From Candidatus Coatesbacteria bacterium (GTDB lineage: Bacteria; RBG-13-66-14): a DNA stretch of 64,000 bases. The translations under genes were made by a program, and so were the position numbers. Below, piece after piece: positions 2,040 to 64,000 of the stretch (its first letter is position 1; each line of letters begins with the position of its first letter). The DNA is taken from the NCBI GenBank assembly GCA_014728225.1, contig WJLX01000050.1, positions 3,008-67,007 of the forward strand, in the 5' to 3' direction. The notes below the pieces were generated by a model. The model was given only the letters and a program-made list of their open reading frames with translations, made no database searches and was not told the origin of the DNA.

Positions 2040-2416
2040 TTATCTGTCGGGTTTTACGTTGAACGATAAACAATGATCCAGGGTTCATTGTCAGATGGTT
2101 TTCGCCTATCCCCTCCAAGTACAACGGGTATCGGTGATTAATGAGCGCCGACCCGGCGTCGGGATCCACGGCGTTCAAATCCGACAACCCGGCCTCGAGC
2201 AACTACCGCGGTTCTTCTCACCCCCGCGGCCGGGAGCGATAAATGGTAAGCCGAGTACCCGCCGGACACCGCATCTTTTAAGAAACGTCGGCTCAAACCA
2301 ACCCGGATTACGAGTAACACGGTCGGCGATGAGTAAACAGACGCCCCCTTGGACGGCGAACCGGTGGTAAACGCGGTTCCGTCGACTATGAGGCATCAAC
2401 GAAGGGAGACCGACAG

Positions 2417-3370: not shown

Positions 3371-4306
3371 ACCCGGCTTCCAGCTCGCTTTCGGGCTACC
3401 GGCGACGGTTTGGCGGATTGTAACCCCGCCAGGGCGTCGTCGGTTTTTCACCGGGTTTCCGTTGACTCGATCCGTCCAGACCGTGAGTGTTGCGGGCCGG
3501 CTCAGTCGATTGGACCTATCTAGATGGTCTCCCATTCAAACAGTAGTATGGCTTAACCGCAGCCTGAAGGCCCCTCGCTGAGACAGAGGCGCAACCACCG
3601 TCGGCGGTCCAGCCGACCCCTCAGCCTGCCGCAGCATCGAGCGGCCACGCCCATGTTCGCTGAGCAACTGCGGTGATTTGGCTCTGAGCCCTCGAAGCCT
3701 GTGTTGTCAATACACTCCCCCTGGTCCTTTCATGGTCGAGTTGACTAGGTGGTCTCTGACGATAACATCCGTCGGGACAACACCTTATCCATCGTCAGCG
3801 CTTCAGGAGTTAATCCTCAGCTCCAGGGCCAAGTCAGCCCGGATTGTCCTGGAGTTGGTGGTGAAGCTGAACTGAAGTAGCTATCCGACGCAATTATTGA
3901 CGATTCGGCGGTTTAATCACCATTCCGCATTTGTTAAAGCTGCGGTTTACACTCATTTAACAATGTTTCGCACTTCGTTCATCCCGGACGGCCTGCGCCA
4001 ATCCGGATCAGCCGACACTGGGTCAAGCTGCCGGGCGTGCATGGCAGACTCCCGGGGCACTATTCACTTTACCCGCCCTTTGCACCCAAGATCCGGCGCA
4101 ATCTCCTGACGGATAGGCCTGCCCTGCGGTCCGGGACCAGTTAAAATGCGCTCATATCTCAAAACCGTTAACGAATTACCCAGTTATTAAAGAAACTAGT
4201 GCACCTTGCCCGCTACCTCCTCACCCCATCGCCGATATACCTGTTGCAAGCGTCACTTTTTCCCCCACCGCTTGGCGAAGGGATGAAAAATCGGTCCGGT
4301 GACACC

Positions 4307-4335
4307 TTGACAATGGCTTTCTCATCAGCTAAATT
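4307..4335 (+). promoter_or_regulatory. putative sigma70-like promoter for paralog B (ttgaca-17-taaatt)
   Basis: ttgaca 4307-4312, 17-nt spacer, taaatt 4330-4335, about 50 nt upstream of the ggag RBS and ATG 4389. Confidence 0.4.
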
Positions 4336-4388
4336 ACTCTATGAATAAACGATGACAAAACCGAACTCCAACGAGCGAGGAGTGGATC

Positions 4389-5330
4389 ATGTCGCGTCGT
4401 TTACTGTTGCTGTTTCTGTGTCTGGTCGTTCCCCTGTGGGCGGCTGGAGGGTTGTGCGTCAACTCCGCGATACCGCCGCGCACCGAGCAGGCGCCCCCGC
4501 AACCCAGTTGGGGTAAAGAGGACGACGTGGTGATCACCGGCTCGACGATGTTCATCGCCGCCGCCTGGTACTGCCATGAAACCAAAAACGGCGACGCATA
4601 CCCGGCCAACCGCGAGGGATTGGATCTGGTTTTCAACTCCATGTTCTACCTGATCGGCAACACCGGCAACGTTGCTTGTATGGGCGACTTTGGTCAATAC
4701 AGCCTTTCCGGTCTGCAGACCGGTTTCTACCTCGCAGATTACGATCAGAATTACATGGAGTTCGTCGAGGAGAACCTCAACGGCACCAACCCCAGCCTGC
4801 CCGGCAATCATCCCTACCACTGCAGCTACGATATGACCCAGATCACCAAGGACGATCCCCTGGTGCTCAACAATGAACCGCTCTACGATCTGCTGATGAT
4901 CAGCGAGGAGTGGAAGATCGAAGACGGCGACAATTACCTGCACACCCGCCAGGAGATCAGTTCGTTCATCGCCGCCGGCGGCAAGGTGATCATCGCCGGC
5001 AGCACCAAGGTCGACTCGATCACGGGTACCCGCTTGAGTTTTCTGCCCAAGGATCAGATCTGGATGTTCGAGAGTGTGCTTGGCACCTTCCCCTTGCCCC
5101 CCGCCGATCCCGGTCATCCGATCGCCGCGGGGATCGACGAGGCAGAGTGGAACATCCAAAACGAGATCTTCTCCGTCATCCGCGACTACGACGAGAACTA
5201 CTACTACAAGATCTTCAGCAACTCGAGCTTCCTCGATGGCAACTCCACCGTCCTCGTCGTCGGCGGCGACGAGTGGAGCGGGGTTCAGCCAACCTCCTGG
5301 GGGGCGCTCAAGGCCGGTCTGGCCGACTAG
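4389..5330 (+). CDS. secreted protein of unknown function, paralog B
   Basis: Signal peptide MSRRLLLLFLCLVVPLWAAG; co-linear similarity to 2417..3370; followed by an intrinsic terminator. Confidence 0.7.
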   Translation: MSRRLLLLFLCLVVPLWAAGGLCVNSAIPPRTEQAPPQPSWGKEDDVVITGSTMFIAAAWYCHETKNGDAYPANREGLDLVFNSMFYLIGNTGNVACMGDFGQYSLSGLQTGFYLADYDQNYMEFVEENLNGTNPSLPGNHPYHCSYDMTQITKDDPLVLNNEPLYDLLMISEEWKIEDGDNYLHTRQEISSFIAAGGKVIIAGSTKVDSITGTRLSFLPKDQIWMFESVLGTFPLPPADPGHPIAAGIDEAEWNIQNEIFSVIRDYDENYYYKIFSNSSFLDGNSTVLVVGGDEWSGVQPTSWGALKAGLAD

Positions 5331-5354
5331 CAAGCCGTCAGTTGATCAATAACA

Positions 5355-5380
5355 CCGGGGCCGACGGCCCCGGTTTTTTT
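5355..5380 (+). terminator. rho-independent terminator
   Basis: ccggggccgacggccccgg followed by ttttttt, 25 nt after the stop of the 4389..5330 gene. Confidence 0.7.
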
Positions 5381-5602
5381 AGCGGCATCGTCCACCCTGC
5401 TAGACCGACTCGCAGCGAATAGAGAGCAAAAGCTCAAATCGCGAAAACGGCTGAGAGAAGAGGGCTGGTAGAGGACATCTCGACCACTGTCGATAACGAC
5501 TGCCTTCTGCAACTACTCGAGGAGCAACCCGAGACTGAAGGTGTTGAACCGTATAGTCTTGGTTACAAACCGCTTAGGTTGCTTGTGTCAATCTGTCACC
5601 GC

Positions 5603-6147
5603 CTCCCTGATAACCAGGCTGAGGTTGCGTTTGAAACCGCCGTGGTGGGCCTTTCGCCGGCGTTCGGCGTAGCCCCGGAAGTTCTCGAGGTCCTTGATAT
5701 GCACCCTGCCAGTGGCCGGGGTCTTGTCATGATTGATGCGCCTGTGATGGAAGCCGTTGAATGAGACAGCTCGTTAGCGGCCTGTCAGCCGTCGGAGTGG
5801 ACGCTCGAGTCCAGCTCGGCCTCCCGAGCCGCGGCGATGCGCTAGTGCTTGGCGACCGTACTGGGATGGACGCCGACCCTCTTGGCCTTCCCGGCTGCGG
5901 TTGCTTCAAGCCGAAGCAGCACGGCGATCAACCAGCGCTGTTCCAAGGCGCTCGCACGTCCGCCGCCCGTCGCCTAACCTGTAGTGATAGCGGTAGTTAC
6001 ACTTCGCACACTTGACGCGCCTGGCGGGATTACCCTTTGAGCCGGCGGCCACAGCGCCTCCTTTGCCCGTGACGTGGCGGCATCCCGTCAACTCTCGTGA
6101 AGACAAGACAATCACACATATGACGACCCATGGGCGTTAGGGTAGCC
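5603..6147 (-). pseudogene. degenerate IS1595/IS1-superfamily transposase remnant, copy A
   Basis: About 85% nucleotide identity over ~545 bp to 15620-16193. Zinc-ribbon-like N-terminus (KCAKCNYRYHYRLGDGRRTCE) but reading frame broken by stops and deletions relative to copy B. Confidence 0.6.
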
Positions 6148-44977: not shown

Positions 44978-46348
44978 TCAATACTGGGTCAGGTCGAAGT
45001 ACAGCGGCTCGCCGGTGCCCACGTTATAGTTGTTGACGTAGACGATCGGCGTCACCGCCAGGTTGTGGAAGCCCGGCGCCATGTTCAAAGCCCAGTAGGG
45101 AATATAGAGCGCCAGGTCCTCGAAGTAGATGTCGTTGCCCTCGACGATGAACTGCTCGGTGTAGACGGCCACCTGGCCGTAAATGTCGGCGTAGTATTGG
45201 GAGTTGGCGTACAGCGGCTGGCCGTTGGCGAAGGTGAACTGCAGCACTACCTGGCCCACGCCGCCGTAGCAGTTGGAGAGCTCGCCGTCGAGATAGACGA
45301 CCATGCCGAAACCGTCCGGGGTCTCGACGTCGTACTCGACCCAGGTGGTGTCGACTTCGGCGTAGGGGTAATCGGCGGGGGCGTAGATGTCCGGATCGTA
45401 GGAATCGACGTAGTAGTCCGTGGGATCAGCCTCCGGGCTGTCCTCCACCTGGTAGGGGCCCTTGCCGTCGTCGTAGGGATCGTACTCGATCTCGTCGGGA
45501 CCGTCGTAGGTCACGTCGTCGGGAACGCTGATGATCAGGTCCTGGCAGACATAGCCCTCGACGACGATCTGCTTCATCGCCTCGTAGGAGATCCAGCCGC
45601 AGCCGTTGTCGCCCCAGCCCGTGCCCCAGGAATTGAAGATCTTGAAGGCCCCGCGGGCATCATCGTAACCGATGGCCACCACGGCGTGGCCCCCCGTCGA
45701 ATAGCCCGAGTAGCTGGAGTAAATCTCGCCGGGTCCCAGGTATTCCAAGGCGTTGTCGACCATGATGCCCAGCATCACCGGGAAACCGCTGGAGATCTGA
45801 GCCTTCATCTCGACGGTGTCCATCACGTTGACCCGCCGCCAGGTGGCGATGCGGTAGGGGTTGGCCCGGCTGCGCTCGTTGTGCGTCGGCATGGTCGAGC
45901 AGTCCCACTGGTTGTAACCGAACTCCGACAACGGCAGGGCACCCTGCTCGGTCAGGACGTTGAAGGCGTCGATATAGCTGGCGCCGCCCATCCGGTTGCC
46001 CGGAGGATAGGCGATCTGGTTATAGACATAGGCCGGTGAGAACCGGTGATCGTCGTCCTCGATGTTCCAGCCGCGCTCCACCCCCTCCTGATAAGTCTTG
46101 ACGCCGTAAGCCGCCGCCCAGCCGACACAGGAGGACTGCTCGCCCTGATCGCCCGGGGAGGGGAAGTAACGTCGCAGGTCGGCCGACGAGGGCACCTCGC
46201 CCATCAACGGCGGACTGGCCAGGGGGATCGAACGGTAGCGGTCCTCCTCGGCGAACACCAGCCCCGTCGAGCGCTGGGCCGCCAGGGGACTCAGCGTCCC
46301 GAGGGCCAAAACCAACACCAATGCCGTGTAAACGAAACGCCTGTGCAT
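44978..46348 (-). CDS. papain-like cysteine peptidase (C1 family), secreted
   Basis: Signal peptide; catalytic QGEQSSCVGWAAAY (Cys), GGHAVVAIGYDD (His), NSWGTGWGDNG (Asn). Confidence 0.85.
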   Translation of the reverse strand: MHRRFVYTALVLVLALGTLSPLAAQRSTGLVFAEEDRYRSIPLASPPLMGEVPSSADLRRYFPSPGDQGEQSSCVGWAAAYGVKTYQEGVERGWNIEDDDHRFSPAYVYNQIAYPPGNRMGGASYIDAFNVLTEQGALPLSEFGYNQWDCSTMPTHNERSRANPYRIATWRRVNVMDTVEMKAQISSGFPVMLGIMVDNALEYLGPGEIYSSYSGYSTGGHAVVAIGYDDARGAFKIFNSWGTGWGDNGCGWISYEAMKQIVVEGYVCQDLIISVPDDVTYDGPDEIEYDPYDDGKGPYQVEDSPEADPTDYYVDSYDPDIYAPADYPYAEVDTTWVEYDVETPDGFGMVVYLDGELSNCYGGVGQVVLQFTFANGQPLYANSQYYADIYGQVAVYTEQFIVEGNDIYFEDLALYIPYWALNMAPGFHNLAVTPIVYVNNYNVGTGEPLYFDLTQY

Positions 46349-52017: not shown

Positions 52018-52208
52018 ATTGTGCGACTGAGGGGCTATACTGGTGTAATTGACCCTTACGAACTTGCTGCGAAATCCAGAGCGATGAAACCGAACACCCG
52101 CCCCCGTTGAATGGTCGTCGGCGACGTCGATCCTGCCGTCACCGGCGAGCCGGAGTTCAGCGAACGCGTGACAGTGACTTGTTTACCCAACCGGACCCGA
52201 GGAGGTCG

Positions 52209-52811
52209 ATGATGAAACGTTTACTGGTGCTATTCCTTTCCATCCTGCTGCTGACCTTCGTTCTGACGGGCTGTGACAGTGCGACAGACGGCGACGGCGA
52301 CGGTGGTGGTGACGGCGGCGGCGACGGTGGCGACGATCCCGGCGAGCTGGGCTGGGCCTTCGATATCGCCGACGGCGTCAGCGAGGTCGAAGACCTGTTG
52401 ATCATCCTCGGCGGCTACATCGACGGCGACGGCGAGCTCGACGATCAGATGGGCACGTGGACCTTCATCTTCGGCGACGTCGACGGCTCTCAGGACCAGG
52501 TCTATCAGGTAACGGTCTTCCCCGACGGTTCCCACGGCGCCGAGTGGGTCGAGGCCGGCGACTTCGATCCCTTCTGGACGGCGATCCCCGAGTACCGCAG
52601 CGCCGCCGACTGGGTCGCCAAGGCCGACGACGCCGTTTCCGGAACGACCTTCGACAGCCGGACCCTGATGGTAGAGTACGACGGCCTCGGCGAGTTCACC
52701 GCCGCCGACAACATCTGCTGGGTGGTTTACCTCAATACCGACTACCAGCCCGTGGCCATGGTCATCCTGGACGCCGACGACGACGACGTGCTGGATACGT
52801 TCATCTATTAG
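52209..52811 (+). CDS. acidic Gly/Asp-repeat lipoprotein
   Basis: MMKRLLVLFLSILLLTFVLTGC lipobox; DGDGDGGGDGGGDGGDD repeats. Confidence 0.6.
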   Translation: MMKRLLVLFLSILLLTFVLTGCDSATDGDGDGGGDGGGDGGDDPGELGWAFDIADGVSEVEDLLIILGGYIDGDGELDDQMGTWTFIFGDVDGSQDQVYQVTVFPDGSHGAEWVEAGDFDPFWTAIPEYRSAADWVAKADDAVSGTTFDSRTLMVEYDGLGEFTAADNICWVVYLNTDYQPVAMVILDADDDDVLDTFIY

Positions 52812-52834
52812 GTTCGTTCGGCGCGCTTGCCGAA

Positions 52835-52884
52835 GTTCTTTGTAGTTCTTTGATGTTCTTTGACGTTCTTTGACGTTCTTTGTT
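52835..52884. repeat. 10-bp tandem repeat gttctttgNN x5
   Basis: gttctttgta / gttctttgat / gttctttgac / gttctttgac / gttctttgtt, between the stop and the terminator. Confidence 0.7.
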
Positions 52885-52893
52885 GATTTCCAA

Positions 52894-52918
52894 CCCGGGC
52901 CCTCGCGGCCCGGGTTTT
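52894..52918 (+). terminator. rho-independent terminator
   Basis: cccgggccctcgcggcccggg followed by tttt. Confidence 0.65.
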
Positions 52919-53243
52919 ACTTACCTTGCGCACCTTCCAGCGGCCTTTTGACTTCCCCAGCGGGGAACGTTACAATCTGAGCGGATAAAACAACTAAAAA
53001 CCCGATCCCGCGAGGAGAAGAATCCGGGCGATGTTCCGCACCTTCCACCACAACGCCCGCACCCCCCACGGCCAGGCCTTCCGCCGCCTGCGCCTGCTCG
53101 TCCTTTTCTCCGACTCCGAACCTCCCGTTTCAGCATAGGCCCCTGACGGGGTCTCCCTTTACCCAACCGGCCCCCGGCCGGACGGTTTGCAGAGCCAAAA
53201 AAACAACCACGGGCCGCACGGCCCAAACGCTGGAGAAACAACG

Positions 53244-54575
53244 ATGGAGAAGAAAAAGGTCCTGATCATGGGAGCCGCCGGTCGCGACTTCCATAACTTC
53301 AACACCTACTTCCGCAACAACAAGGAATTCGAGGTCGTGGCCTTCACCGCCACCCAGATCCCCGACATCGACGGGCGCAAGTACCCCGCCGAGCTGGCCG
53401 GTGAGCTCTACCCCAACGGCGTACCGATCTACGACGAGTGCGAGCTGGTCAACCTGATCGAGAAGAACGACATCCACACCGTGGTCTTCTCCTACTCCGA
53501 CGTGCCCCACGAGTACGTCATGCACAAGGCCTCGATCGTCAACGCCGCCGGAGCCAACTTCGCCCTGCTGGGCGGTCCCGCGGTGACCATCGAAGCGGGC
53601 AAGCCGCTGATCAGCGTCTGCGCCGTGCGCACCGGCTGCGGCAAGAGCCAGACCTCGCGCAAGGTCATCGACACCCTGCTCAAGGCCGACAAGCAGGTCG
53701 TCGCCATCCGCCACCCCATGCCCTACGGCGATCTGGTCAAGCAGAAGGTCCAGCGCTTCGCCGAGTTGGCCGATCTCGACAAGCACAACTGCACCATCGA
53801 GGAGATGGAGGAGTACGAGCCCCACATCGCCGCCGGCAACGTCATCTACGCCGGGGTCGACTACGGCGCCATCCTGGCCGAGGCCGAGCAGGAGGCCGAC
53901 ATCATCCTCTGGGACGGCGGCAACAACGATACTCCCTTCTACAAGAGCGACCTGCACATCGTCGTCGTCGATCCCTTCCGCGCCGGTCACGAGCTGGCCT
54001 ACTACCCCGGCGAGACCAACCTGCGGATGGCCGACGTGATCGTCGTCAACAAGCTCGGCGCCGTCGATCCCGACGAGCTGGCCTACCTGCGCGAGAACAT
54101 CCGCTGCGTCAACCCCGAGGCCGTGGTCATCGAGGCCGCCAGCCCGCTGACCGTCGAGAGCCCGGAGAACATCACCGGCAAGCGCGTGCTGTGCATCGAG
54201 GACGGTCCGACGCTGACCCACGGCGAGATGACCTTCGGCGCCGCCGTGGCCGCCGCCGAGAAGTTCGGCGCCGGCAGCCTGGTCGACCCGCGCCGCTGGG
54301 CTGTAGACAGCATCGCCGAGACCTTCGAGAAGTACCCGGAGATCGGCGTCCTGCTGCCCGCCATGGGCTACGGCTCCCAGCAGATCAAGGACCTGGAGAA
54401 GACCATCAACGCCATGGTCGCCGACGGCGCCATCGACAGCGTGGTCATCGGCACCCCGATCGATCTCAACCGCATCGTCGAGATCAACTGCCCGACCAGC
54501 CGGGTCAAGTACGAGCTGCAGGAGATCGGCCATCCCGACCTGGCCGACGTCCTGTCGCAGAAGGGTTTCATGTAG
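53244..54575 (+). CDS. P-loop protein of the cyclic 2,3-diphosphoglycerate synthetase / DUF1611-like family (tentative)
   Basis: 444 aa; Walker-A-like AVRTGCGKSQTS; overall layout resembles CPGS/DUF1611 proteins. Family assignment is from memory, not a search. Confidence 0.45.
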   Translation: MEKKKVLIMGAAGRDFHNFNTYFRNNKEFEVVAFTATQIPDIDGRKYPAELAGELYPNGVPIYDECELVNLIEKNDIHTVVFSYSDVPHEYVMHKASIVNAAGANFALLGGPAVTIEAGKPLISVCAVRTGCGKSQTSRKVIDTLLKADKQVVAIRHPMPYGDLVKQKVQRFAELADLDKHNCTIEEMEEYEPHIAAGNVIYAGVDYGAILAEAEQEADIILWDGGNNDTPFYKSDLHIVVVDPFRAGHELAYYPGETNLRMADVIVVNKLGAVDPDELAYLRENIRCVNPEAVVIEAASPLTVESPENITGKRVLCIEDGPTLTHGEMTFGAAVAAAEKFGAGSLVDPRRWAVDSIAETFEKYPEIGVLLPAMGYGSQQIKDLEKTINAMVADGAIDSVVIGTPIDLNRIVEINCPTSRVKYELQEIGHPDLADVLSQKGFM

Positions 54576-54760
54576 CAACCGCTCGTTGAGGGCCGGTGAA
54601 GCGGTCTTGTGATCACCGTCCTTCTTGGACGAAGGGTCATGTTGAGCAGGCCTTCAGCCCTTCGTTGACGACGGGGAGTCTGTCTGATGATCCCCGCCCC
54701 CGTTTCGAGTGAAGGGCCATAGTACGTTGCCCTTCGTCGAATACGGTACTTCCCGCGCGA

Positions 54761-54792
54761 GGGGACGGTCCGCCCGGACCGTCCCCGTTTTT
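54761..54792 (+). terminator. rho-independent terminator
   Basis: ggggacggtccgcccggaccgtcccc followed by gttttt, about 190 nt after the stop. Confidence 0.65.
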
Positions 54793-55042
54793 CATGCTTG
54801 AAACAGGTCGCGCACCCTCGGCAGAAGAGAGCGAGCCGGGGAAGCCCGCTCAGAGCGCCGTGAGCACACCCGGGAAGATACCCGACCAAAAAACTCGAAA
54901 AATAAGCCACAATGTGATTGCCGTCACATTAATCGACAACAACAGCGGCTATTAATGTAGGTGATGCAGATGAGAAGGGGTCTCAACAAAAGCGCGATCG
55001 GTTGATCAAACGACGTTAGGCCCCATAACTTAAGGAGTTACG

Positions 55043-55465
55043 ATGAAGAAGCTCGCCTACATCTCCCTGTTCGTCCTGCTGCTGGCCTCCCTGGGCGCGG
55101 CCCAGATCAGTGACAGTCCCAATTCGCCCCGCGAGGGCATCATCCCCGATCTGGGGCCCGGCGAGATCCTCATTCCCCGTTACGACCCGGGGAACAAAAC
55201 TGAACCCCTACCGCCCAACGGTCTGCCCATGAACGCCCTGAACCCGGACGGCTACGTCGGACCCGACGATGTCAAGAATCGAGTCAACCCGACCGGCGGC
55301 TCAGCCCTGGACAGCCTGGAACAGAACCCGTCCGAGGCCGTCAACCCGCTCTACGGTATCGCTCCCTACGAGCCCCCGCGCTGGGAGCCCAAGGACCGCT
55401 TGAACCCGGAGCGCGGCGACGACTCCTTCGAACCCAAGGACCGCTTGAACCCTCAAGCTCGGTAG
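55043..55465 (+). CDS. secreted Pro/Asn-rich repeat protein
   Basis: Signal peptide; repeated EPKDRLNP units. Confidence 0.5.
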   Translation: MKKLAYISLFVLLLASLGAAQISDSPNSPREGIIPDLGPGEILIPRYDPGNKTEPLPPNGLPMNALNPDGYVGPDDVKNRVNPTGGSALDSLEQNPSEAVNPLYGIAPYEPPRWEPKDRLNPERGDDSFEPKDRLNPQAR

Positions 55466-55633
55466 GCTCGACCAGCGGCAGACCGGGCTCGCGAAGGACT
55501 GTTAACAGTCGACAAACCGCATATTAACGTTGGGACAATCCGGCGGCCCATGGGTCGCCGGGTTGTCGATTACGCCGACGGGGTCGAATGTTGTATACTT
55601 GATACTCAACCTACAACACACGGGAGGTCATCA

Positions 55634-56188
55634 ATGATCAAGCGCGGCAACCTGATCCCCCTGGGCACCATCGCCCTGGGCATGAGTACCCTGATGCTCG
55701 GTCTCTACCTGACGAACCTGTTCCAGACCTACGGCGGACTGGAATCGTTGTTGCCCATCGGGTTGAACATGGGCGGCCTGGCCCAGGTGCTGATCGGCAT
55801 CTTATGCTACTTCCGCGGCAGTACCCGCGAGGCGACGGCCTTCCTCGCCGTGGGTCTGTTCTGGTTCGGTTACGGCTTCGTCGGTCTGGGCTCGTTATTT
55901 GGTGAGGGCGGCGCCCTGATCGGCTTCTTCTACCTGCTGTGGCTGGTCCTCGTCGGCAGCTTAGCCCTGATCTACTGGAAGCGCGGCAGCCATATCCGCG
56001 CCGCGGGTTACGCCGGACTGGCCCTGTGCTTCTTCTTCCAGGCCCTGGCCCACTGGACCACCCTGGGGCTGCTGTCGATCAGCGGCGGGGTGATGGCCGT
56101 GCTGGGCGGTCTGCCCCTGCTCCATCTCGGGCTGAAGTCCTTCATCGACAAGGCCGTAGCGGAGCCGGAACTGGAAGACGAGGTCTAA
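55634..56188 (+). CDS. GPR1/FUN34/YaaH (SatP-like acetate/succinate channel) family membrane protein
   Basis: 184 aa, 6 TM; N-terminal NLIPLGTIALGMSTLMLGL parallels the NPAPLGL signature; gggagg RBS. Confidence 0.5.
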   Translation: MIKRGNLIPLGTIALGMSTLMLGLYLTNLFQTYGGLESLLPIGLNMGGLAQVLIGILCYFRGSTREATAFLAVGLFWFGYGFVGLGSLFGEGGALIGFFYLLWLVLVGSLALIYWKRGSHIRAAGYAGLALCFFFQALAHWTTLGLLSISGGVMAVLGGLPLLHLGLKSFIDKAVAEPELEDEV

Positions 56189-56298
56189 CGGAAAACCCGC
56201 TGCGGATCCAGACGAACCGGCCGTAACCTCCGGCCTTCTATGTGACAGCTAAGGCCGCCGCCGCTTACGTTTCCGCTTGATCGAAGAAAGGAAAACCC

Positions 56299-58185
56299 AT
56301 GCGCGCTAGCATCATCGTCATCTGCTGCCTGTCCGTCATGCCCGGCCTGGCTGATCAGGGTGCCAGTCAGATCCACCTCGACGACGGCGGCGGCCTGATC
56401 GAATACTGGGACACCACGAGCCTGACCTCGCCCGGCGTCAACGACCAATGGAGCGGTCGACCCCTCGACGGCGATGTTCTCTGGCACTACCACATCCCCG
56501 ACGGCGGCGGCGGGCAGCGCAACACCTGCGCCTTCGGAAACGATTACGACCACGTCCTCTCGGGCGGCTGGTTCCTGGGCTTCAAGCTGTTCGCCACCCT
56601 GGGCGACGGGCAGCCCGTCTGGGAGTGGTACGAGGAGGGCTCCGAGGGTCACCGCGGCGGCTTCGCTCCCGTCGGCGCCGAGAGCGCCGACATCTTCTAC
56701 GGCGTCTGGTACAACAACTTCGACACCAGCTTGTTCCGCATTTACCGCTTCGACTCGCAGACCGCCGGTCCGCTGTGGACCTACGACGCCTCCGCCGCCG
56801 GTTACACCACCGAGAACATGTGGAGCAATGATCTGCGGCTGGACTGCACCCCCGATGGCTCTCTGCTGGCCGTGGGGGTCAAGCATGACGGCCATCCGGC
56901 GGTGCTCTTCTTCGGTCCCGACTCCTCCACGCCCCTGGGCGTCTGGGAGGACACCGGCAACGCTTTCGGACCCTCCAAGGTCCGGTTGAGCGACGACGGC
57001 TCCGTCGTCGTGCTGCGTGCCGGAACAACCTTCTACCGCGTCGACGTCGCCACCGCCGCCACGGTCGCCTCCTGGAGTGCGGGCAGCAACGAGGGCTGGG
57101 CCGTCAGCACCGACGCCTCGCTGATGGGCTACGCCAACGCCCCGTTGACCGTGGTGGAGTGGAACGCCGGTGCCGGCGAATACCAGCAGCTCTGGCAGTA
57201 CCAACACCCCGGCAGCCCCACCCATTATGTCGGCACCATGGCCTTCAGCGACGATAACGCCGAGCTGGCCGTCGGCTGGTGGGAGTTCGACATGTATAAC
57301 ATGCTGCAGTGCTTCTTCACCCACCATCAGGTGGCCGGCGACGGCCAACCCGATTGGGAGTACGCCACCCCGCGGGGTACCGACAGCGAATATCAGGACC
57401 GTCCCGTCAGCTGCAGCCTCTCCGCCGACGGCCGGTTGATCGCTTTCGGAACCTGGGGCAACGCCGACCAGACTCATGACGAGGTGCTGGTCTTCGACAA
57501 CGAGAACCCGACGGAGCCCTACTACGGCCTCGATCACCTCGGTTCCTGCGAGCACGTTGAGCTCTCCGCCGACGGCCTGCTGCTGACCTCGGCGGGCAAG
57601 ACCGTCCACGTCAACGAGATGGGCTCCGGCGGCGACGTCTACGCCGCCGAGTTGGACCCCCTTGTCGGCGTCGGTGACGGCGTCCTGAGCGCCGAGGGCC
57701 TCGAGGACGGCGTCCTGCTCGACTGGACCTCGGCGGTCGGCGGCCGGGCGACGGTCCTGCGCGACGGCGCCGTTGTGGCCGCCGGCCTGACCTCGAGCGC
57801 CTGGCTGGACCGCGACGCCGCCCCCGGCCGGACCCACCGCTACACGGTGCGCCTGCAAACGCCCGACGGCGAACTCCTCCTCCTGGGCCCCGTCGAGGTT
57901 TTCTACGATGCCGGTACCGCGAACCGGTCCGCGCTGGACCTGCCGCATCCCTGCCCCTGCGATACGGCTTGCGTGGTCGAGGTCGAGCTGTCCAGCGCCA
58001 GCCTAGCCGAACTGGTCCTATACGATCTGGCCGGTCGCCGGATCCAAGTAATCCATTGCGGTGTGCTGGCTCCCGGGCGACACGATTTCACCTTGCAGAC
58101 CTCGTCACTGTCCGAAGGCCTCTATCTCCTGCGGTTGACCGTCGCAGGCGAGGTTCAGAACCGCCGCTTGATCGTGGCCCGCTAG
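56299..58185 (+). CDS. secreted beta-propeller-like protein with C-terminal Por/T9SS-type sorting domain
   Basis: Signal peptide; C-terminus ...LSEGLYLLRLTVAGEVQNRRLIVAR. Confidence 0.6.
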   Translation: MRASIIVICCLSVMPGLADQGASQIHLDDGGGLIEYWDTTSLTSPGVNDQWSGRPLDGDVLWHYHIPDGGGGQRNTCAFGNDYDHVLSGGWFLGFKLFATLGDGQPVWEWYEEGSEGHRGGFAPVGAESADIFYGVWYNNFDTSLFRIYRFDSQTAGPLWTYDASAAGYTTENMWSNDLRLDCTPDGSLLAVGVKHDGHPAVLFFGPDSSTPLGVWEDTGNAFGPSKVRLSDDGSVVVLRAGTTFYRVDVATAATVASWSAGSNEGWAVSTDASLMGYANAPLTVVEWNAGAGEYQQLWQYQHPGSPTHYVGTMAFSDDNAELAVGWWEFDMYNMLQCFFTHHQVAGDGQPDWEYATPRGTDSEYQDRPVSCSLSADGRLIAFGTWGNADQTHDEVLVFDNENPTEPYYGLDHLGSCEHVELSADGLLLTSAGKTVHVNEMGSGGDVYAAELDPLVGVGDGVLSAEGLEDGVLLDWTSAVGGRATVLRDGAVVAAGLTSSAWLDRDAAPGRTHRYTVRLQTPDGELLLLGPVEVFYDAGTANRSALDLPHPCPCDTACVVEVELSSASLAELVLYDLAGRRIQVIHCGVLAPGRHDFTLQTSSLSEGLYLLRLTVAGEVQNRRLIVAR

Positions 58186-58212
58186 CGACCAGGGGTCGCA
58201 GACTCTTGATAA

Positions 58213-58242
58213 AACCGGGATCCTCTCGATCCCGGTTTTGTT
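58213..58242 (+). terminator. rho-independent terminator
   Basis: aaccgggatcctctcgatcccggtt followed by ttgtt. Confidence 0.65.
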
Positions 58243-58613
58243 ATGCCGATCGTTAAACAACATTGAGCTCTCTCAGCTATTACTGGCCGCCGGGAAGCGC
58301 TGAACAGGAACACGCAATTTCGATCACCCGACTTGGGGTGCGATTGTGTTCACGCTGGTATCGACACAGCAGGAACTCTTTCCTTTGACGTGGGATCTGT
58401 CGATATACCGGAACGGTTTTGCGATAACCCGAGACGGGTAACAGGCATCACCGTCGAGAATAAAAAGTGACAATAGCGACAGGTGCGCCCATGGCGACGA
58501 GGGATACTGATAAGCTGCTCGGTGAAAGGCAAGAAAGACACAGCTCTGCCAAAGTGTGTTTCACAACCGAAGCCTGTGATACAGGTTTTTACGGGAAGTT
58601 AAGGAGCAGGGGA

Positions 58614-58979
58614 ATGGGAAAGGGAATCGCTCTAACAAACGGCAGGTTGATGCCGTCGGCCCAGGGTGGACTGGCTTGCTATGACGCAATGACGCTGGTC
58701 CGGGCGCGGATCGCCCGTATGCTGCGGGCCCGGCGGGGAGAGCTGGAATCTCATCCCGATTGGGGCAATCCGTTGCTGGAGCGTCTCTCCGCTCCGACAG
58801 ACCGTGAGACTATGGTCGCCTGGACCGACGAGTTGCGTCGGCTTGTGGGCGGAGATCCTGCTGTACGCGAAGTCATGGACCTAACCATCAAACGTCTCGG
58901 CAACCGCAGTTGGTTTATCAACATCGTTTTCATTCCCCATGATCTAAGCGAACAGCAGATGGAGATTATGCTCGTCTAG
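58614..58979 (+). CDS. phage baseplate wedge protein, GPW/gp25-like (lysozyme-fold)
   Basis: 121 aa from ATG with aaggag RBS; ...ARIARMLRARRGELESHPDWGNPLLERLSAP... and C-terminal WFINIVFIPHD fit the gp25/gpW pattern. Confidence 0.6.
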   Translation: MGKGIALTNGRLMPSAQGGLACYDAMTLVRARIARMLRARRGELESHPDWGNPLLERLSAPTDRETMVAWTDELRRLVGGDPAVREVMDLTIKRLGNRSWFINIVFIPHDLSEQQMEIMLV

Positions 58980-59014
58980 ATGCTTCACGGGCGGTAGAAG
59001 AAAGGACGGCAGGA

Positions 59015-60163
59015 ATGCTATATACCGACAGTGAACTGCTAACACGAATTATCGAATACTACAGGGCCCGTTGTCCCCAACTAGACGATTACACTCCGGG
59101 CGAGGTCATGCTTGGGCTGGCCGAAGGCGATCGCGACGTCGCGGCGGACCTGCTCTACCAGGCTGAAAAGCAGCTCAATCGCTGCATGATCGACACCGCG
59201 AAAGGCGACGATCTGGACGTACTGCTAACCGGTTACGGCTTTTCAAGGCCTGCACCGGCCAAAGCGCACGGCGTAGTCACTATTTCTACACCTTCCCTAA
59301 GCAGCGATACGATCGTCGGTACGACGATCACCATCCCCAAGGGTACCAAGCTGGGGTTGGGCAGCTTTAATTACACTTCGAATGTGGTCTTCGAAACCGA
59401 TTACGACGTTGATTACACCTACGGGGACACCTCCACAACAGATGTCGACATTACGGCTGTGGAACCCGGATCCCGCGGCAATGTTAATGCTAATACGATT
59501 ACACGTATTCTAAATAACGAGAGCTGGGCGGTCAAGGTGACGAATCCCTCACCGACCAGCGGTGGGCACGACGATTGGTCCGATAGTGAGTACAGACGCC
59601 TCTTCCGCGCCTGGTTGGCCTCGATGGGCAAGACGACCAAGACCGCCGTCGAGGGCCGAGCCCTGCTGGTGCCCGGTGTCTACAACGCCCAGTTGGCAGA
59701 GAACGTTACGAGCAACGAGGAGACTGTCACCGAACTCAAGGGTAATAACGTCCTGTTTATTTGGAACGGTACAGATCAAACAGCTGACGAGGCATTGGAA
59801 ATCCGGGTCCGTGAGGTGTTGGTCGACGATTACCGTGGTATTGGCACCACCCTAACCGTCAAGCACGCAACTCCTGTAGCCGTGGACTTGACGATTGAAA
59901 GACTTACGATCAAGCAGGGTTACAGCAACAACAAGATCAAGAATGACGTCTCAGTCGCTCTGCAACGCTATATCAGGAGCTTGGCACCCTCGCAGAATGT
60001 CAGCAAGGCCAAGGCCGTCCAGCATGCAATGCAGGTGCCGGGCGTTAAGGAAATTCAATTCAATGATAGTGAAGCTATTGAAGAAATCAACATCGGATGT
60101 GTCGCCCTGCCCGGGGACGTGACCTTTACCAACATCGATCGCGCGGGGGGTGAGTCGTCGTGA
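59015..60163 (+). CDS. Baseplate J-like protein (gpJ/gp6/Mu gp47-like)
   Basis: HGVVTISTPSLSSDTIVGTTITIPKGTKLG..VVFETD typical Baseplate_J core; 382 aa. Confidence 0.65.
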   Translation: MLYTDSELLTRIIEYYRARCPQLDDYTPGEVMLGLAEGDRDVAADLLYQAEKQLNRCMIDTAKGDDLDVLLTGYGFSRPAPAKAHGVVTISTPSLSSDTIVGTTITIPKGTKLGLGSFNYTSNVVFETDYDVDYTYGDTSTTDVDITAVEPGSRGNVNANTITRILNNESWAVKVTNPSPTSGGHDDWSDSEYRRLFRAWLASMGKTTKTAVEGRALLVPGVYNAQLAENVTSNEETVTELKGNNVLFIWNGTDQTADEALEIRVREVLVDDYRGIGTTLTVKHATPVAVDLTIERLTIKQGYSNNKIKNDVSVALQRYIRSLAPSQNVSKAKAVQHAMQVPGVKEIQFNDSEAIEEINIGCVALPGDVTFTNIDRAGGESS

Positions 60164-60825
60164 ACAGGGAGCAGATACGAGAGCGATTGTTGGGTGAGTT
60201 GCCGCTGGAACTCGACGTCGACGATCCTCTCACCGGCGGCTTCATTGAGGCTAGAGTCGACCGGTTGCTGGAGGTTGCTGAACGCATCGACGAGCAGGTT
60301 TATCTGCCGACCTTCGGCCGTTCCTCTGACTGGTATCTGAGTAGGATCGCCCATTCCCTGGGTATTCAGCGCCGCCACGCTGAGAATGATCATTGGTTGA
60401 GACAGCGGGTGTTGCGGATAGTTTTCGGGCGTCATCAGGGCACCCGCTTGGGCGTCGAGGAAGCACTCGCTGATCTGCTGGTCAAGCAGGCGATCATTGT
60501 GGAATGGATACGTGATCACCTTTTCCTCGACGCCGAGCGCAGTTTTCTGGGAGGTCCGAAGAACTGGCTCTGTTCTAGAGCCACGATGGGATTGAGCTTC
60601 CGAGTCCGCGTCCGACCGCCGATGCTCTGTCTGAAGCAATATGCTCCCTATATCCATCGCACGAAAACGTATATCAGTCCAACCCATACCAAACAGGCTT
60701 TCCTCGGGGAATGCTATCTATTTGACGACGAACGGGCCGATTACTCGACGCCGCTGTGGTTGATCTGGTGGCTGGTCGACCGCCTGCGGATGGCAGGAAC
60801 AACCTTCGAAATGGAGATACTCTGA
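60160..60825 (+). CDS. phage tail protein, DUF2313 / gpI / Mu gp48-like
   Basis: GTG start overlapping the upstream stop (gtga); position and size match the gene that follows Baseplate J in P2/Mu-like tails. Confidence 0.45.
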   Translation: MNREQIRERLLGELPLELDVDDPLTGGFIEARVDRLLEVAERIDEQVYLPTFGRSSDWYLSRIAHSLGIQRRHAENDHWLRQRVLRIVFGRHQGTRLGVEEALADLLVKQAIIVEWIRDHLFLDAERSFLGGPKNWLCSRATMGLSFRVRVRPPMLCLKQYAPYIHRTKTYISPTHTKQAFLGECYLFDDERADYSTPLWLIWWLVDRLRMAGTTFEMEIL

Positions 60826-61805
60826 TGGACAAGATCAACTTTACCGACCGACAGGAGCTGACGCTGGCAGACGCCACCTCTATTTTCGATCTAGTGGAAA
60901 ATGAGTTCTGTCGTGTGCTGCGGGAGTACTTCAGCGAGACTGACGTCGTAATCAAGGGCTTTGAGGTTGCGACCACCATCCCCCCCGCGATGGCCGTCAA
61001 GGTCAAAGTGGATGACGATGCGATCATCGGCACTGACACCACGGGCTGGGCCGTCGGGATAGATCCGGCGACCTCCAAACCCGTCCGGCTGACCGCTGAC
61101 ACCACCGCCGCCATCAGTGAGGCCGATGCCTCCAGCGCCCGTGTCGACCTGGTCTGTATTCGCCGTATGACAACGGCGGCCGAACCCGAAGAGCGTTTCT
61201 TCTGGGATCCGGAGAACGAGATCATCGATAGTTCCTCGGTCTACACTCGTCTGCTCGACGATTGCGAAATCCATATCTTCGAGGGTGAACTGGGCGGATC
61301 GGCGCCGATTCTCGACGATTCGTCCAATCCGATCAGCGATAACTGGCTCAAGCTTGCCGAGGTTGAAGTGGGTGCAGGAGTCACTCAGATCGACAGCAGC
61401 AGCATCACCGATGTGCGCAACCTGTACGCTGGTCCGTACGTGAACGAAGACTTCGTCAGCGACAATGTCAAGGACTTCTCTCTGGAGCACGACAAGTTCG
61501 AAGGGGTGCGTCGGATTCTGACCGATCTGGATACAACCTACAGCGAGCTATGGAGCACGGACACCAAGGATTGGCTTGACCGGATCGTCCTGGTCTATAT
61601 GGCTCATCAACCGATGGCCACCATAAACGAAATCACCTCGCTGATCAACCTGTCGAATGTGTCGACCTCGTACAGCTTGGGATCAATCAGCGGCGACACG
61701 GCATATATCCGTGTCAACCCCAGCGGCAGGCTGGAGTTCAAGCTTGATTCCAGTTCGTTCGCTAATATCTTCATCCGCGTCGAGGACGGCGGATCCAACA
61801 GTTAG
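60825..61805 (+). CDS. tail fibre / receptor-binding-like protein (tentative)
   Basis: TGATG overlap with the upstream gene; Ser/Thr/Asp-rich 326-aa protein in the tail-fibre position. Confidence 0.4.
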   Translation: MDKINFTDRQELTLADATSIFDLVENEFCRVLREYFSETDVVIKGFEVATTIPPAMAVKVKVDDDAIIGTDTTGWAVGIDPATSKPVRLTADTTAAISEADASSARVDLVCIRRMTTAAEPEERFFWDPENEIIDSSSVYTRLLDDCEIHIFEGELGGSAPILDDSSNPISDNWLKLAEVEVGAGVTQIDSSSITDVRNLYAGPYVNEDFVSDNVKDFSLEHDKFEGVRRILTDLDTTYSELWSTDTKDWLDRIVLVYMAHQPMATINEITSLINLSNVSTSYSLGSISGDTAYIRVNPSGRLEFKLDSSSFANIFIRVEDGGSNS

Positions 61806-61815
61806 GAGCGGTCAA

Positions 61816-62043
61816 GTGAGCGGTTTACGTTTCGAGATCGAGTGGGGTACCCGGTTGACCTCGGTGGCCATGCTGGTTGGGGTGTTCATCGGCTGCGCGG
61901 TGGCCACGGCCCTTGAATGGCTGCCGCCCGACGTGCTCAACTGGGGCTGGGGGGCTCTAGGTACGGCCGTCGCCGCCTTTGTCACGGCCAGGGGCCTGGA
62001 AAAACGCAGTCGCATCAGCCGCGTAGGCGGTGAACAAGAATGA
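61816..62043 (+). CDS. holin-like small membrane protein (75 aa, GTG start)
   Basis: aggag RBS, two hydrophobic helices, ATGA overlap with the downstream amidase. Confidence 0.45.
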   Translation: MSGLRFEIEWGTRLTSVAMLVGVFIGCAVATALEWLPPDVLNWGWGALGTAVAAFVTARGLEKRSRISRVGGEQE

Positions 62044-62600
62044 GCTGGAATCCCGAAGGGCCAAGGGACCTCGATATCCGGGTCGTGCCCACCCGAGACG
62101 CCCATTTCGATCCCAAGCGTCGAATCAAAGGGGTTGTCATCCATTACACCGCCGGCGGCTTTGAGGGTTCCTTGGCCTGGCTGACGCGGCCCGACGCAAT
62201 TCCGGTTAGTTGCCACTATTTGATCGCTCGCGATGGACGTGTCGTTCAACTGTGCCGGATCGGCCACGTCGCATATCACGCCGGCCGATCCTGGGGCGAA
62301 GACAATCCCAACCGTTGGAGCGTGGGCTGCGAGCTTGTGGCTACCTCTAGTGACGGTTACACTTTCACGACCGAACAATATGACGTGCTCAGCCGTTTGC
62401 TGGCTTGGCTGTACGACACGCAGCATCTGTGCTTCGCGTACCCGGACGGCGATCCTGCTGGATACCGAGAGCGTGCCTACTGGCACGGTATCTTCCGCGG
62501 TGATGGTTTCTGCATTGGCCACAGCGCCGTCAACCCGGGAAAGCCCGACCCGGGGCCCAATTTCAACTGGAAGGCGCTGGCCGATCTGGTGGCCTCGTAG
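62040..62600 (+). CDS. N-acetylmuramoyl-L-alanine amidase (Amidase_2/PGRP fold), endolysin-like
   Basis: VVIHYTAG, SCHYLIARDGRVVQL, AYHAG, SVGCEL, GHS..NPGKPDPGPNF zinc-amidase motifs. Confidence 0.85.
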   Translation: MSWNPEGPRDLDIRVVPTRDAHFDPKRRIKGVVIHYTAGGFEGSLAWLTRPDAIPVSCHYLIARDGRVVQLCRIGHVAYHAGRSWGEDNPNRWSVGCELVATSSDGYTFTTEQYDVLSRLLAWLYDTQHLCFAYPDGDPAGYRERAYWHGIFRGDGFCIGHSAVNPGKPDPGPNFNWKALADLVAS

Positions 62601-62633
62601 TCATGAGGTCGAGACCAGACGAGTCGTCTTGAG

Positions 62634-63317
62634 ATGACACAAAAGACCAAACTTTGGCTGTTAGGCAGCGTGTTTCTGGCTCTGATCGGGGTCTTGCTGC
62701 TGCTGGTGTTTCACTGGCGCGCCACAGCCCTGGAGGCCCAGGCACGCAACGGCGCCCTGGTTGTCGACGCTTTACGCGCTAAAAGTCGTCTGACGACTGT
62801 CATAGACAATATCATGAATCTTCAGGTAGATAATATAGAGCTTCGTCGATCCCTGAACAAACGCCGGGCTGAGATCGAGCGTTTGGTCCAAGTCGAGGTC
62901 GGCACCGTGCCAATGTCTTACACCGCCGTCCCAGCTGAACCTGAAGGAGAAACCGAACCACCGGCCGCATTCAGTGGCAGCTGGACAGCCGCCGGTGATC
63001 ACTGGCGGGCACGCTTCAGTTATCCACCGCCGACCTTCGATATCGAACTGCTTCGACGCCATGCCGAGCTGGAAATCGTTTGGGATGATCAGGATATTGT
63101 GGGTGTGGCAACCGAGGCCGATTGGCTGATAATCGACGACGTGCACGGGTTGAGAAGAAGACAACCGGATAGCGACTGGTCCCTGGGAGCCACGCTGCGT
63201 TATCCAGAAACCGCTGTTGGGGCCCATCTTGACTGGAAGTGGCTGACCTTCGGCGTTGATTACTCTTTCGATGAGCAGAAGCCGGTATTGCGCATGGGAG
63301 TGGAGTTCGACCTATGA
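62634..63317 (+). CDS. membrane-anchored coiled-coil protein, i-spanin (Rz-like) candidate
   Basis: N-terminal TM helix, then coiled-coil, directly after the endolysin. Confidence 0.35.
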   Translation: MTQKTKLWLLGSVFLALIGVLLLLVFHWRATALEAQARNGALVVDALRAKSRLTTVIDNIMNLQVDNIELRRSLNKRRAEIERLVQVEVGTVPMSYTAVPAEPEGETEPPAAFSGSWTAAGDHWRARFSYPPPTFDIELLRRHAELEIVWDDQDIVGVATEADWLIIDDVHGLRRRQPDSDWSLGATLRYPETAVGAHLDWKWLTFGVDYSFDEQKPVLRMGVEFDL

Positions 63318-63478
63318 TCATCGAAGCCCGGAAACAAGGATGGTTCGTCAATGCGGATCATCGATGGTTGTCCGTTCCGGCTAACCTGGCTACGCGTTGG
63401 CTGTACGGCTCGGTCCGGGCCGAAGATGAAATCATACGATATCTGGACCCCAACGGAGGAACCGATGATGAGGCGTGA
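63314..63478 (+). CDS. small ORF (54 aa), ATGA-coupled to the upstream gene
   Basis: Overlapping start/stop; no recognisable features. Confidence 0.25.
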   Translation: MIIEARKQGWFVNADHRWLSVPANLATRWLYGSVRAEDEIIRYLDPNGGTDDEA

Positions 63479-64000
63479 GGCTTGCCCCTTGTGCGGTGCC
63501 GGGCTCGAGATGAGTGAATTGTTGCTCAAGACCGCCAAGGGTTATCCACTTCACCAGTGTTGTCGCTGCGGCCTCGTCTTCGGTGTAGAACTGCTGGACG
63601 AGGAAGAGCTCGACGGTATTTATGATGAGGAGTATGCGGAACATTATTGCAAACCGGCGCTGATACAGCAAAACCGTCATTACGCGGAACAGTTCTTTGC
63701 CGACCGACCCAGGGGTGACCTGCTCGAAATTGGATGTGGTACGGGTAGCATGCTCAAGCGTCTGCACGAGTTGGGCTTCAATGTCGAGGGACTTGAACTA
63801 TCTAAGGCCATGGCTGCCCATGTCGCTGAACTGCCGCTCATACGGGGATCTATCGAAAGGCTCGAATTGAGTACATATTACGGCTGCTACGACTACGTCG
63901 TCATGTTCCATGTGCTCGAACACCTATATGATCCGGTTGCCACCGTCGCAAAGGTGTTTAAGTTGTTGCGTCAAGGTGGATTATGGTTTAATTATATGCC
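63465..64000 (+). CDS. zinc-ribbon + class I SAM-dependent methyltransferase (partial, runs off the window end)
   Basis: ggagga RBS; MMRREACPLCGAGLE...CCRCGLVFG (CxxC...CxxC), then LLEIGCGTGSM motif I; no stop before the window end. Confidence 0.6.
   Translation, partial: MMRREACPLCGAGLEMSELLLKTAKGYPLHQCCRCGLVFGVELLDEEELDGIYDEEYAEHYCKPALIQQNRHYAEQFFADRPRGDLLEIGCGTGSMLKRLHELGFNVEGLELSKAMAAHVAELPLIRGSIERLELSTYYGCYDYVVMFHVLEHLYDPVATVAKVFKLLRQGGLWFNYM

Follow-up and report, generated by a model that had tools for sequence, protein, structure and literature searches.

Escherichia coli K-12 carries the cryptic (defective) prophages DLP12, Qin, Rac, and e14. In contractile-tailed phages (myoviruses) that follow the Mu/PBSX gene order, genes for a tape measure protein (TMP), a LysM protein (XkdP-like), the hub (XkdQ-like), and the spike are followed by gp25 (XkdS or Mu gp46), the Baseplate_J protein (J; XkdT or Mu gp47), a gpI-like protein (XkdU or Mu gp48), a tail fibre, a holin, and an amidase. 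Here we describe a nine-gene island at the right end of a 64,000-nucleotide (nt) stretch, referred to as the window, of a 67,632-bp contig from a Candidatus Coatesbacteria metagenome-assembled genome (MAG; GF399 proteins). The island is of phage origin and starts at gp25. It is, in our judgment, quite probably the right arm of a rare contractile-tailed (Mu/PBSX-order) prophage in the Candidatus Coatesbacteria chromosome, recently acquired and defective, which has lost everything to the left of gp25 and is fixed in the population.

The source contig runs 3.6 kb past the end of the window, and statements of absence made below apply to the 64-kb window. Comparisons were made with four metagenomic contigs that carry detectable relatives of the island (L001-L004), with a 30.6-kb contig (L007) from a separate NCBI MAG (GCA_054921935.1), and with Logan contigs that carry the island itself (L008-L016), of which eight are full-length and span window positions 57869 to 64000 (runs in the SRR33304587-95 range). 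Judging from PMC7495880 and PMC12343361, the GF399 sample may come from Shark Bay and the SRR333045xx runs from Solar Lake, Taba, a tentative provenance on which no conclusion below depends. The left flank and the island comprise the following features, with lengths of proteins given in amino acids (aa).

56299 to 58185, plus strand: host gene of the left flank, encoding a 628-aa secreted protein with a C-terminal type IX secretion system (T9SS) type A sorting domain (TIGR04183, 25.3 bits; G+C content at third codon positions [GC3] 0.87)
58207 to 58243, plus strand: terminator-like hairpin with a 16-bp stem and a 5-nt loop, then UUUUGUU (fold energy, inverted repeat)
58245 to 58613, no strand: non-coding spacer that separates gp25 from the host gene, about 370 bp, G+C content (GC) 0.52, with stops in all six frames
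58614 to 58979, plus strand: gp25-like baseplate wedge protein, 121 aa (GPW_gp25 below cut-off, PHROG 975, orthologues)
59015 to 60163, plus strand: Baseplate_J wedge protein of the T4 gp6, P2 gpJ, or Mu gp47 type, 382 aa (PF04865 above cut-off, PHROG 6)
60160 to 60825, plus strand: putative third wedge protein, 221 aa, in gpI, gp7, or TmpF position (weak Tail_P2_I match, orthologues)
60825 to 61805, plus strand: 326-aa protein in tail-fibre or receptor-binding position (position, PHROG matches of orthologues)
61816 to 62043, plus strand: 75-aa hydrophobic protein, holin-like by position (hydropathy, position)
62040 to 62600, plus strand: Amidase_2 (N-acetylmuramoyl-L-alanine amidase) endolysin, 186 aa (PF01510 above cut-off)
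62634 to 63317, plus strand: 227-aa membrane and coiled-coil protein, spanin-like by position only (hydropathy)
63314 to 63478, plus strand: conserved 54-aa protein (58% identity to a 56-aa gene in the same slot of L002)
63465 to 64000, plus strand: class I S-adenosylmethionine (SAM) methyltransferase with an N-terminal CxxC...CxxC motif, cut by the window end (L002 synteny, full-length L007 copy)

The island is foreign to its chromosomal surroundings in composition. GC falls from 0.66 over positions 1 to 58,200 to 0.56 over positions 58,250 to 64,000, with the step beginning at about 58,245, and GC3 shows a still sharper contrast, with values of 0.82 to 0.94 in four left-hand host genes and of 0.58 to 0.74 in the nine island genes; the drop in GC near 58.3 kb that had been reported in the initial annotation is thus real. 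That annotation had also described the upstream neighbour as a high-GC secreted protein of the T9SS type with its own terminator, and both parts of this description hold. The 628-aa protein scores above the NCBIfam cut-off of 23 bits for TIGR04183 and is recorded at NCBI, in the source MAG, as MBD3399455.1 (T9SS type A sorting domain-containing protein, Candidatus Coatesbacteria), and the hairpin downstream of it has a predicted fold energy of -23.5 kcal/mol (z -4.47), which none of 200 shuffled sequences equalled; a simple terminator scan made no call at this hairpin. Host-type composition stops at the hairpin, and the other upstream neighbours are host genes as well, including those for a YaaH-family channel and UppS. 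The spacer that follows gave no PHROG match and holds no trace of the spike (V) or 72-aa genes found at this place in the relatives, either by tblastn or by Smith-Waterman alignment compared against shuffled sequences. No Rfam match was found between 57.5 and 64 kb, and no promoter-like site was found on the plus strand upstream of the island with a consensus that may not be that of this phylum.

The nine island genes are co-oriented and follow one another with overlaps of 1 to 13 nt or short gaps. Start and stop codons overlap at 60160 (GTGA), 60825 (TGATG), 62040 (ATGA), and 63314 (ATGA), exactly as initially reported, and the conclusion drawn at that time, that the open reading frames (ORFs) are intact, agrees with the end-to-end alignments to relatives described below. 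The initially proposed gene order, from a gp25-like gene to a zinc-ribbon methyltransferase, likewise stands, with some labels corrected.

Among the baseplate genes, J is the most clearly assigned. Its product, which is 100% identical to NCBI GF399_03900, matches Baseplate_J (PF04865) with 77.7 bits (E 1.1e-21; cut-off 21.1 bits), with residues 74 to 324 covering profile positions 13 to 241 of 255, and matches PHROG 6 with E 3.9e-42. It shares 45 to 46% identity with its orthologues in L001-L004, and the deposited phages nearest to it by this protein are all myoviruses (22 to 25% identity). Pfam searches also placed the amidase above its cut-off, as had been expected, and the initial Baseplate_J and Amidase_2 assignments are both solid. 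For the gp25-like protein the initial assignment fell short of the Pfam threshold (GPW_gp25, PF04965; E 6.6e-4, 19.9 bits, cut-off 27.2 bits) and was upheld by other evidence. We assign this protein as gp25-like because it matches PHROG 975 ("baseplate protein"; E 7.9e-5), because its 120-aa orthologues in L001 and L002 (43% identity over the full length) reach 23.6 and 26.6 bits against GPW_gp25, and because its gene occupies the slot before J that is filled in every comparison phage; a small gp25-type gene stands directly before J in L001, L002, Thermus phage Cumys, and the Twort-like phages. No gp25 match emerged when PDB sequences were searched with a profile of this protein. The gene is preceded by an AGGAG ribosome-binding site 8 nt upstream and ends 35 nt before the start of J.

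The 221-aa protein had been labelled as a DUF2313 protein, a label that we drop, since no match to this Pfam family (PF10076) was found at E values up to 0.1. Its match to Tail_P2_I (PF09684; E 3.6e-3, 17.6 bits) lies under the cut-off of 20.6 bits and covers the N-terminal 80 residues only, and a PDB profile search aligned its N-terminus with that of TmpF of a staphylococcal myovirus (E 0.021); likeness to known families is weak and confined to the N-terminal 100 to 110 residues or so. The orthologue in L001 matches PHROG baseplate proteins with E 8e-5. Identity to orthologues is 47 to 49%, and a full HMMER search of 1.84 billion representatives returned only four relatives. These data are consistent with a third wedge protein of the gp7/gpI class, short of proof. 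For both the gp25-like and the gpI-like protein, profile hidden Markov models thus lend weak support to the predicted role, and position and orthologues lend stronger support.

The 326-aa protein in fibre position aligns end to end, at 45% identity, with 342-aa orthologues and gave no Pfam or NCBIfam family match. Those orthologues match PHROG tail-fibre families (E 1.8e-9) through a 21-aa segment that is deleted in the window copy, and it is from these matches, together with position, that the putative tail-fibre label derives. Structure prediction, which had been proposed initially as a check, was run with AlphaFold2 for this protein and, from a single sequence, for the 221-aa protein, and the models proved too poor for use, with predicted local distance difference test (pLDDT) scores of 50 and 43, respectively. 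In the former model, only a C-terminal beta domain is confident; Foldseek found no match at E values of 0.001 or below, its PDB matches were meaningless, and a PDB profile search returned nothing. A distant homologue (30% identity over half the length) is encoded at positions 10001 to 11161 of L019, a siphovirus-like contig, directly after an SPP1_Dit-type distal tail protein; because of this placement, part of the fibre-position protein seems to be a module common to contractile and non-contractile tails.

The initial annotation had labelled two proteins of the lysis block holin-like and spanin-like, and we keep these names as descriptions of position, size, and hydrophobicity. The 75-aa protein has a hydrophobic core at residues 11 to 37, a second, weaker hydrophobic stretch, and a charged C-terminus (KRSRISRVGGEQE); the stop of its gene overlaps the amidase start, and it is predicted as a gene in L007-L016. 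It has no family match in Pfam, PHROG, or NCBIfam and occupies the slot of an 83-aa gene of the relatives, to which it shows no sequence similarity. The 227-aa protein has an N-terminal transmembrane helix followed by a charged helical stretch. Its comparison with PHROG 214 (Rz-like spanin) was weak (E 0.038), no match was found in phage databases, and the ORF list showed nothing with a lipoprotein signal either within its gene or beside it. It stands where the relatives have a 65-aa gene, and there is no similarity between the two.

The amidase between these genes (MBD3399461.1 in the source MAG) matches Amidase_2 (PF01510) with 87.4 bits (E 1.3e-24; cut-off 26 bits) and matches 15 PHROG endolysin or amidase families. 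It is 55 to 57% identical to its orthologues, and H35, E98, H161, K168, and D170, in the motifs IHYTAG...E98...GH161SAVNPGK168PD170PG, are invariant in three of them; these His, Glu, His, Lys, and Asp residues would correspond to the zinc-binding and catalytic residues of the family. The window amidase is without the basic C-terminal tail of about 27 aa that is present in the L001 and L002 orthologues. At the right end of the island, the methyltransferase is 242 aa in full length, as read from L007, and is 43% identical to a 248-aa methyltransferase in the same place in L002. The full-length L007 protein matches Methyltransf_23, Methyltransf_11, Methyltransf_12, Methyltransf_25, and Methyltransf_31, with NCBIfam small-molecule methyltransferases below their cut-offs. 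It belongs to the phage module.

The genes of the island are orthologous to, and syntenic with, phage tail modules. In L001-L004, the order is gp25, J, a 217- or 221-aa gene, a 342-aa gene, an 83-aa gene, Amidase_2, a small gene, a 56-aa gene, and a methyltransferase, and the island shares 43 to 57% amino acid identity with these relatives in full-length alignments. Directly 5' of gp25, with overlapping stops and starts, L001 and L002 carry a 728-aa tape measure (PhageMin_Tail; PHROG 28, E 2e-28), a LysM protein, a 347-aa hub-class tail protein (PHROG 52, E 2.5e-29), Phage_base_V, and a 72-aa gene. When the proteins of these relatives were compared by tblastn with the whole 64-kb window at E values up to 10, the genes from gp25 onward gave matches at E 1e-11 to 1e-97, and not one of the upstream proteins gave a match. 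The upstream tail genes of the relatives are absent from the window, and the element is therefore truncated precisely at the gp25 start. In the deposited phages nearest by J, sheath, tube, and tape measure genes also precede the baseplate genes (in the order sheath, TMP, hub, gp25, J). The initial claim that tail genes ought to precede gp25 and are missing here is thus supported, and the statement that there is no sheath, tube, or integrase stands for sheath and tube across the 64 kb and, for integrase, within the window only. No tape-measure, hub, or spike gene and no tRNA were found in the window either; candidate direct repeats of the attachment site (att) type in the sequence at hand were short matches at chance level, and no insertion sequence element, integrase, or att repeat was seen there.

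The phage lineage is very rare, with four to six relatives in billions of proteins. A search of 5.8 billion proteins with the J protein returned the protein itself, three relatives at 45 to 46% identity, and one distant match at 26%. IMG/VR scans with the J, amidase, and 221-aa proteins yielded no relatives, no DNA match to deposited phages was found, and two distant phages (P0005 and P0013) differ in layout. The relatives have a GC of 0.69 to 0.71 and a GC3 of about 0.9, and the host has a GC3 of about 0.87; since the island (GC 0.56, GC3 about 0.65) lies far below both, the donor lineage appears to have been compositionally unlike all of its relatives.

The same layout was recovered from other assemblies. 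The exact amidase and 227-aa proteins were found on 12 contigs, the amidase being identical in all of them. L007 is 99.6% identical to the window over positions 55430 to 64000 (98.9% over 52196 to 55452) and carries the whole layout, from the T9SS gene through the hairpin and spacer to every gene of the island. Separate sequencing runs, put together with a different assembler, yielded eight Logan contigs, each of which covers 317 bp of host gene sequence, crosses the junction, and continues through the island, so that the junction between the T9SS gene and gp25 is reproduced in nine independent assemblies. All contigs break about 260 to 290 bp past the methyltransferase stop, where two sequence variants diverge, and the eight full-length Logan contigs share a left end (window position 57869) inside the T9SS gene, at a cluster of single-nucleotide polymorphisms; the strains thus diverge immediately beyond each edge of the island.

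Across ten assemblies, no island gene contains a stop or frameshift, and the sole indel is an added C in the 35-nt spacer between gp25 and J. Nonsynonymous (N) and synonymous (S) polymorphisms were distributed as follows.

gp25: N 0, S 0
J: N 10, S 4
221-aa gene: N 2, S 4
Fibre-position gene: N 5, S 2
Holin-like, amidase, 227-aa, and 54-aa genes (1.6 kb): N 0, S 1
Methyltransferase: N 1, S 1

With Nei-Gojobori site counts, the ratio of nonsynonymous to synonymous polymorphism per site (pN/pS) is 0.53 for J, the gpI-like gene, and the fibre-position gene together (17 N to 10 S), which is indistinguishable from neutrality (p 0.08); it is about 0.8 for J and for the fibre-position gene, 0.47 for the whole island (p 0.035), and 0.26 for the adjoining host gene. 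The assemblies diverge by about 0.4%, a level at which neutral evolution would leave fewer than two nonsense mutations, and the intactness of the ORFs thus says little about selection. Per unit length, the J, gpI-like, and fibre-position genes (27 polymorphic sites in 2.8 kb, positions 59015 to 61805) are 16 times as variable as the lysis block (one site in 1.6 kb, positions 61816 to 63478; Fisher p 9e-5). Because synonymous diversity also falls in the lysis block, a different history of recombination or sweeps explains this contrast as well as selection does. Eight differences between 59446 and 59902 distinguish the window from each of the eight assemblies with sequence there, and this interval may be a recombination tract.

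Taken together, these data describe phage-derived foreign genes that lack essential modules and adjoin host DNA at a true chromosomal junction, as expected of a cryptic prophage remnant; in a complete (inducible) prophage, genes for head, packaging, sheath and tube, tape measure, and hub would be contiguous with the baseplate genes, which in the window they are not. Three explanations had been offered initially, namely a truncated right arm, a retained minimal unit, and a contig chimera, and of these we favour the first, regard the second as less likely, and reject the third. A 58-kb Coatesbacteria contig joined in assembly or binning to a 9-kb phage contig would account for an abrupt 10-point GC step located exactly at an intergenic region, and the source is a metagenome-assembled genome. 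We nevertheless regard such an error as barely credible, because the same junction recurs at 99.6% identity in L007 and in the eight Logan contigs, and independent data sets handled by more than one assembler would hardly yield the same false join; the junction is a genuine chromosomal one. It is also quite unlikely that the phage is complete and that its left arm, with heads, sheath, tube, TMP, and hub, lies elsewhere following an inversion or other rearrangement or on a second contig. MAGs are incomplete and phage regions often remain unbinned, the sequence visible to us amounts to one 64-kb window and one 30-kb contig of two MAGs, and every assembly breaks about 260 bp past the methyltransferase stop, all of which would allow for a left arm out of sight. 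This explanation is weakened, however, by a search of 5.8 billion proteins in which the relatives' hub protein found no Coatesbacteria homologue from either MAG, whereas J, fibre, and amidase of the GF399 MAG are present in that collection. Moreover, the left junction consists of clean host DNA with its own terminator-like hairpin, identical in all strains, and a tail operon split inside a block of coupled genes would probably fail.

The explanation that comes nearest to competing is that the wedge, fibre, and lysis genes, or the lysis cassette by itself, have been retained by the host as a useful domesticated module. Regulated autolysis or vesicle release would be one use, with analogues in the lysis genes of DLP12 in E. 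coli and of pyocin clusters, and a pool of baseplate and fibre genes that superinfecting relatives could borrow or recombine with would be another. Consistent with this explanation, in ten assemblies none of the nine genes is shortened or carries a coding indel and their starts are coupled, the lysis block is nearly devoid of polymorphism, the active-site residues of the amidase are conserved, and pN/pS for the whole island is 0.47 (p 0.035). Yet intactness carries little weight at the observed divergence, J and the fibre-position gene have pN/pS values of about 0.8, and the low synonymous diversity of the lysis genes points to shared history rather than to purifying selection. In addition, the close relatives are ordinary tail modules with a hub, so that the truncated form stands by itself, the upstream sequence shows no promoter-like site, and the PADLOC defence models returned a generic methyltransferase match only. 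On balance, the evidence leans to a remnant over a retained functional unit, and we consider domestication unlikely. It seems more improbable still that the wedge, fibre, and lysis block has been kept as a minimal unit in its own right, either as a satellite-like cassette whose wedge and fibre proteins are incorporated into the tails of a superinfecting helper phage of the same lineage, or recombined into that phage, or as a self-lysis device that releases an adhesin complex; if this were true, the clean cut between wedge and hub would reflect function and not accident.

Under the favoured explanation of a truncated prophage right arm, truncation may have occurred through a deletion running from host DNA into the prophage or through integration of a fragment only, by illegitimate recombination. 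Acquisition would have been recent, since GC3 has not shifted to the host value and no gene has gained a stop or frameshift. Because sheath, tube, tape measure, and hub are absent, the wedge and fibre proteins would form no tail, and the remnant could assemble at most wedge complexes of the gp25, J, gpI-like, and fibre proteins. The holin-like, amidase, and 227-aa genes look competent, given the intact catalytic residues of the amidase and the invariance of these proteins among strains, and could bring about lysis only if transcribed. Several points weigh against this explanation. The right boundary lies past 64 kb, where integrase or regulatory genes may be present, although the synteny of the relatives makes further tail genes there unlikely; the left arm may have been relocated by rearrangement, given how little of the two MAGs is visible; and the low GC of the island is odd for an element whose host and known relatives are both GC-rich. 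The cut falls exactly at a gene start with a clean ribosome-binding site, and the nine genes are intact in every strain with invariant lysis genes, both of which also fit selective retention.

Elsewhere in the window, two low-GC patches, at 2 to 6 kb and at 44 to 46 kb, were considered as the missing phage arm and rejected, as neither gave a PHROG structural-protein match. The patch at 2000 to 6000 (GC 0.55 to 0.58) holds two ORFs of about 315 aa (2417 to 3370 and 4389 to 5330) without Pfam or PHROG matches and may be another foreign island. The other patch, with a GC of 0.58 within a region of 0.65 to 0.70, contains a papain-family cysteine peptidase gene on the minus strand (44978 to 46348; Peptidase_C1, E 1.6e-9; PHROG peptidase, E 3e-17). 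Two genes upstream of the T9SS gene vary between strains. A 140-aa secreted proline-rich protein (55043 to 55465; L007 2838 to 3425) is extended to 195 aa in L007 by an extra 169-bp copy of positions 55239 to 55407, with substitutions and indels clustered at 55387 to 55444. The GPR1/FUN34/YaaH-family channel gene (55550 to 56188; Pfam E 6.5e-11) is intact in the window, and its L007 counterpart (3594 to 4148) is interrupted by a nonsense substitution (55803 T>G, L85*) and predicted as two fragments of 56 and 112 aa.

The outcome is in one sense a clean negative, in that the GC step and the missing tail genes are best explained by an ordinary defective prophage, with no need for either an assembly error or a novel minimal machine. 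At the same time, the island physically links a very rare lineage of myovirus type to a host of the uncultured phylum Coatesbacteria, represents a remnant fixed in a population across several samples, and provides, with its intact Amidase_2, holin-like, and 227-aa proteins from a phylum with no cultured member, a candidate lysis tool. It is unusual only in belonging to a rare phage lineage, in having a host from an uncultured phylum, and in being cut so cleanly between wedge and hub.

Compared with the contractile systems that share its baseplate genes, the island is most readily placed by what accompanies the wedge. R-pyocins, extracellular contractile injection systems (eCIS) such as Photorhabdus virulence cassettes (PVC) and the antifeeding prophage (Afp), and the TssE-F-G-K baseplate of type VI secretion systems (T6SS) share with it the wedge trio (gp25/TssE, gp6-J/TssF, and gp7-I/TssG) and a receptor-binding protein, and in pyocins an adjacent holin and endolysin serve release, comparable to the lysis genes described here. 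However, tailocins, eCIS, and T6SS need sheath, tube, hub or spike, and a length-determining protein in addition to the wedge, none of which is encoded in the window, and we therefore reject membership of the island in any of these groups. The Mu/PBSX order is present exactly in L001 and L002, and also in Thermus phage Cumys and the Twort-like phages; the island keeps this order from gp25 onward and differs from these myoviruses in that all genes before gp25 are absent and in that its J protein is at most 25% identical to those of deposited phages. The closest likeness is to the cryptic prophages of E. coli K-12, in which a late-gene block of foreign composition, without particle modules, likewise lies between host genes with its lysis cassette intact and is fixed; the island differs from them in its uncultured candidate-phylum host, its very rare phage lineage, and an unusually clean cut at a gene start.

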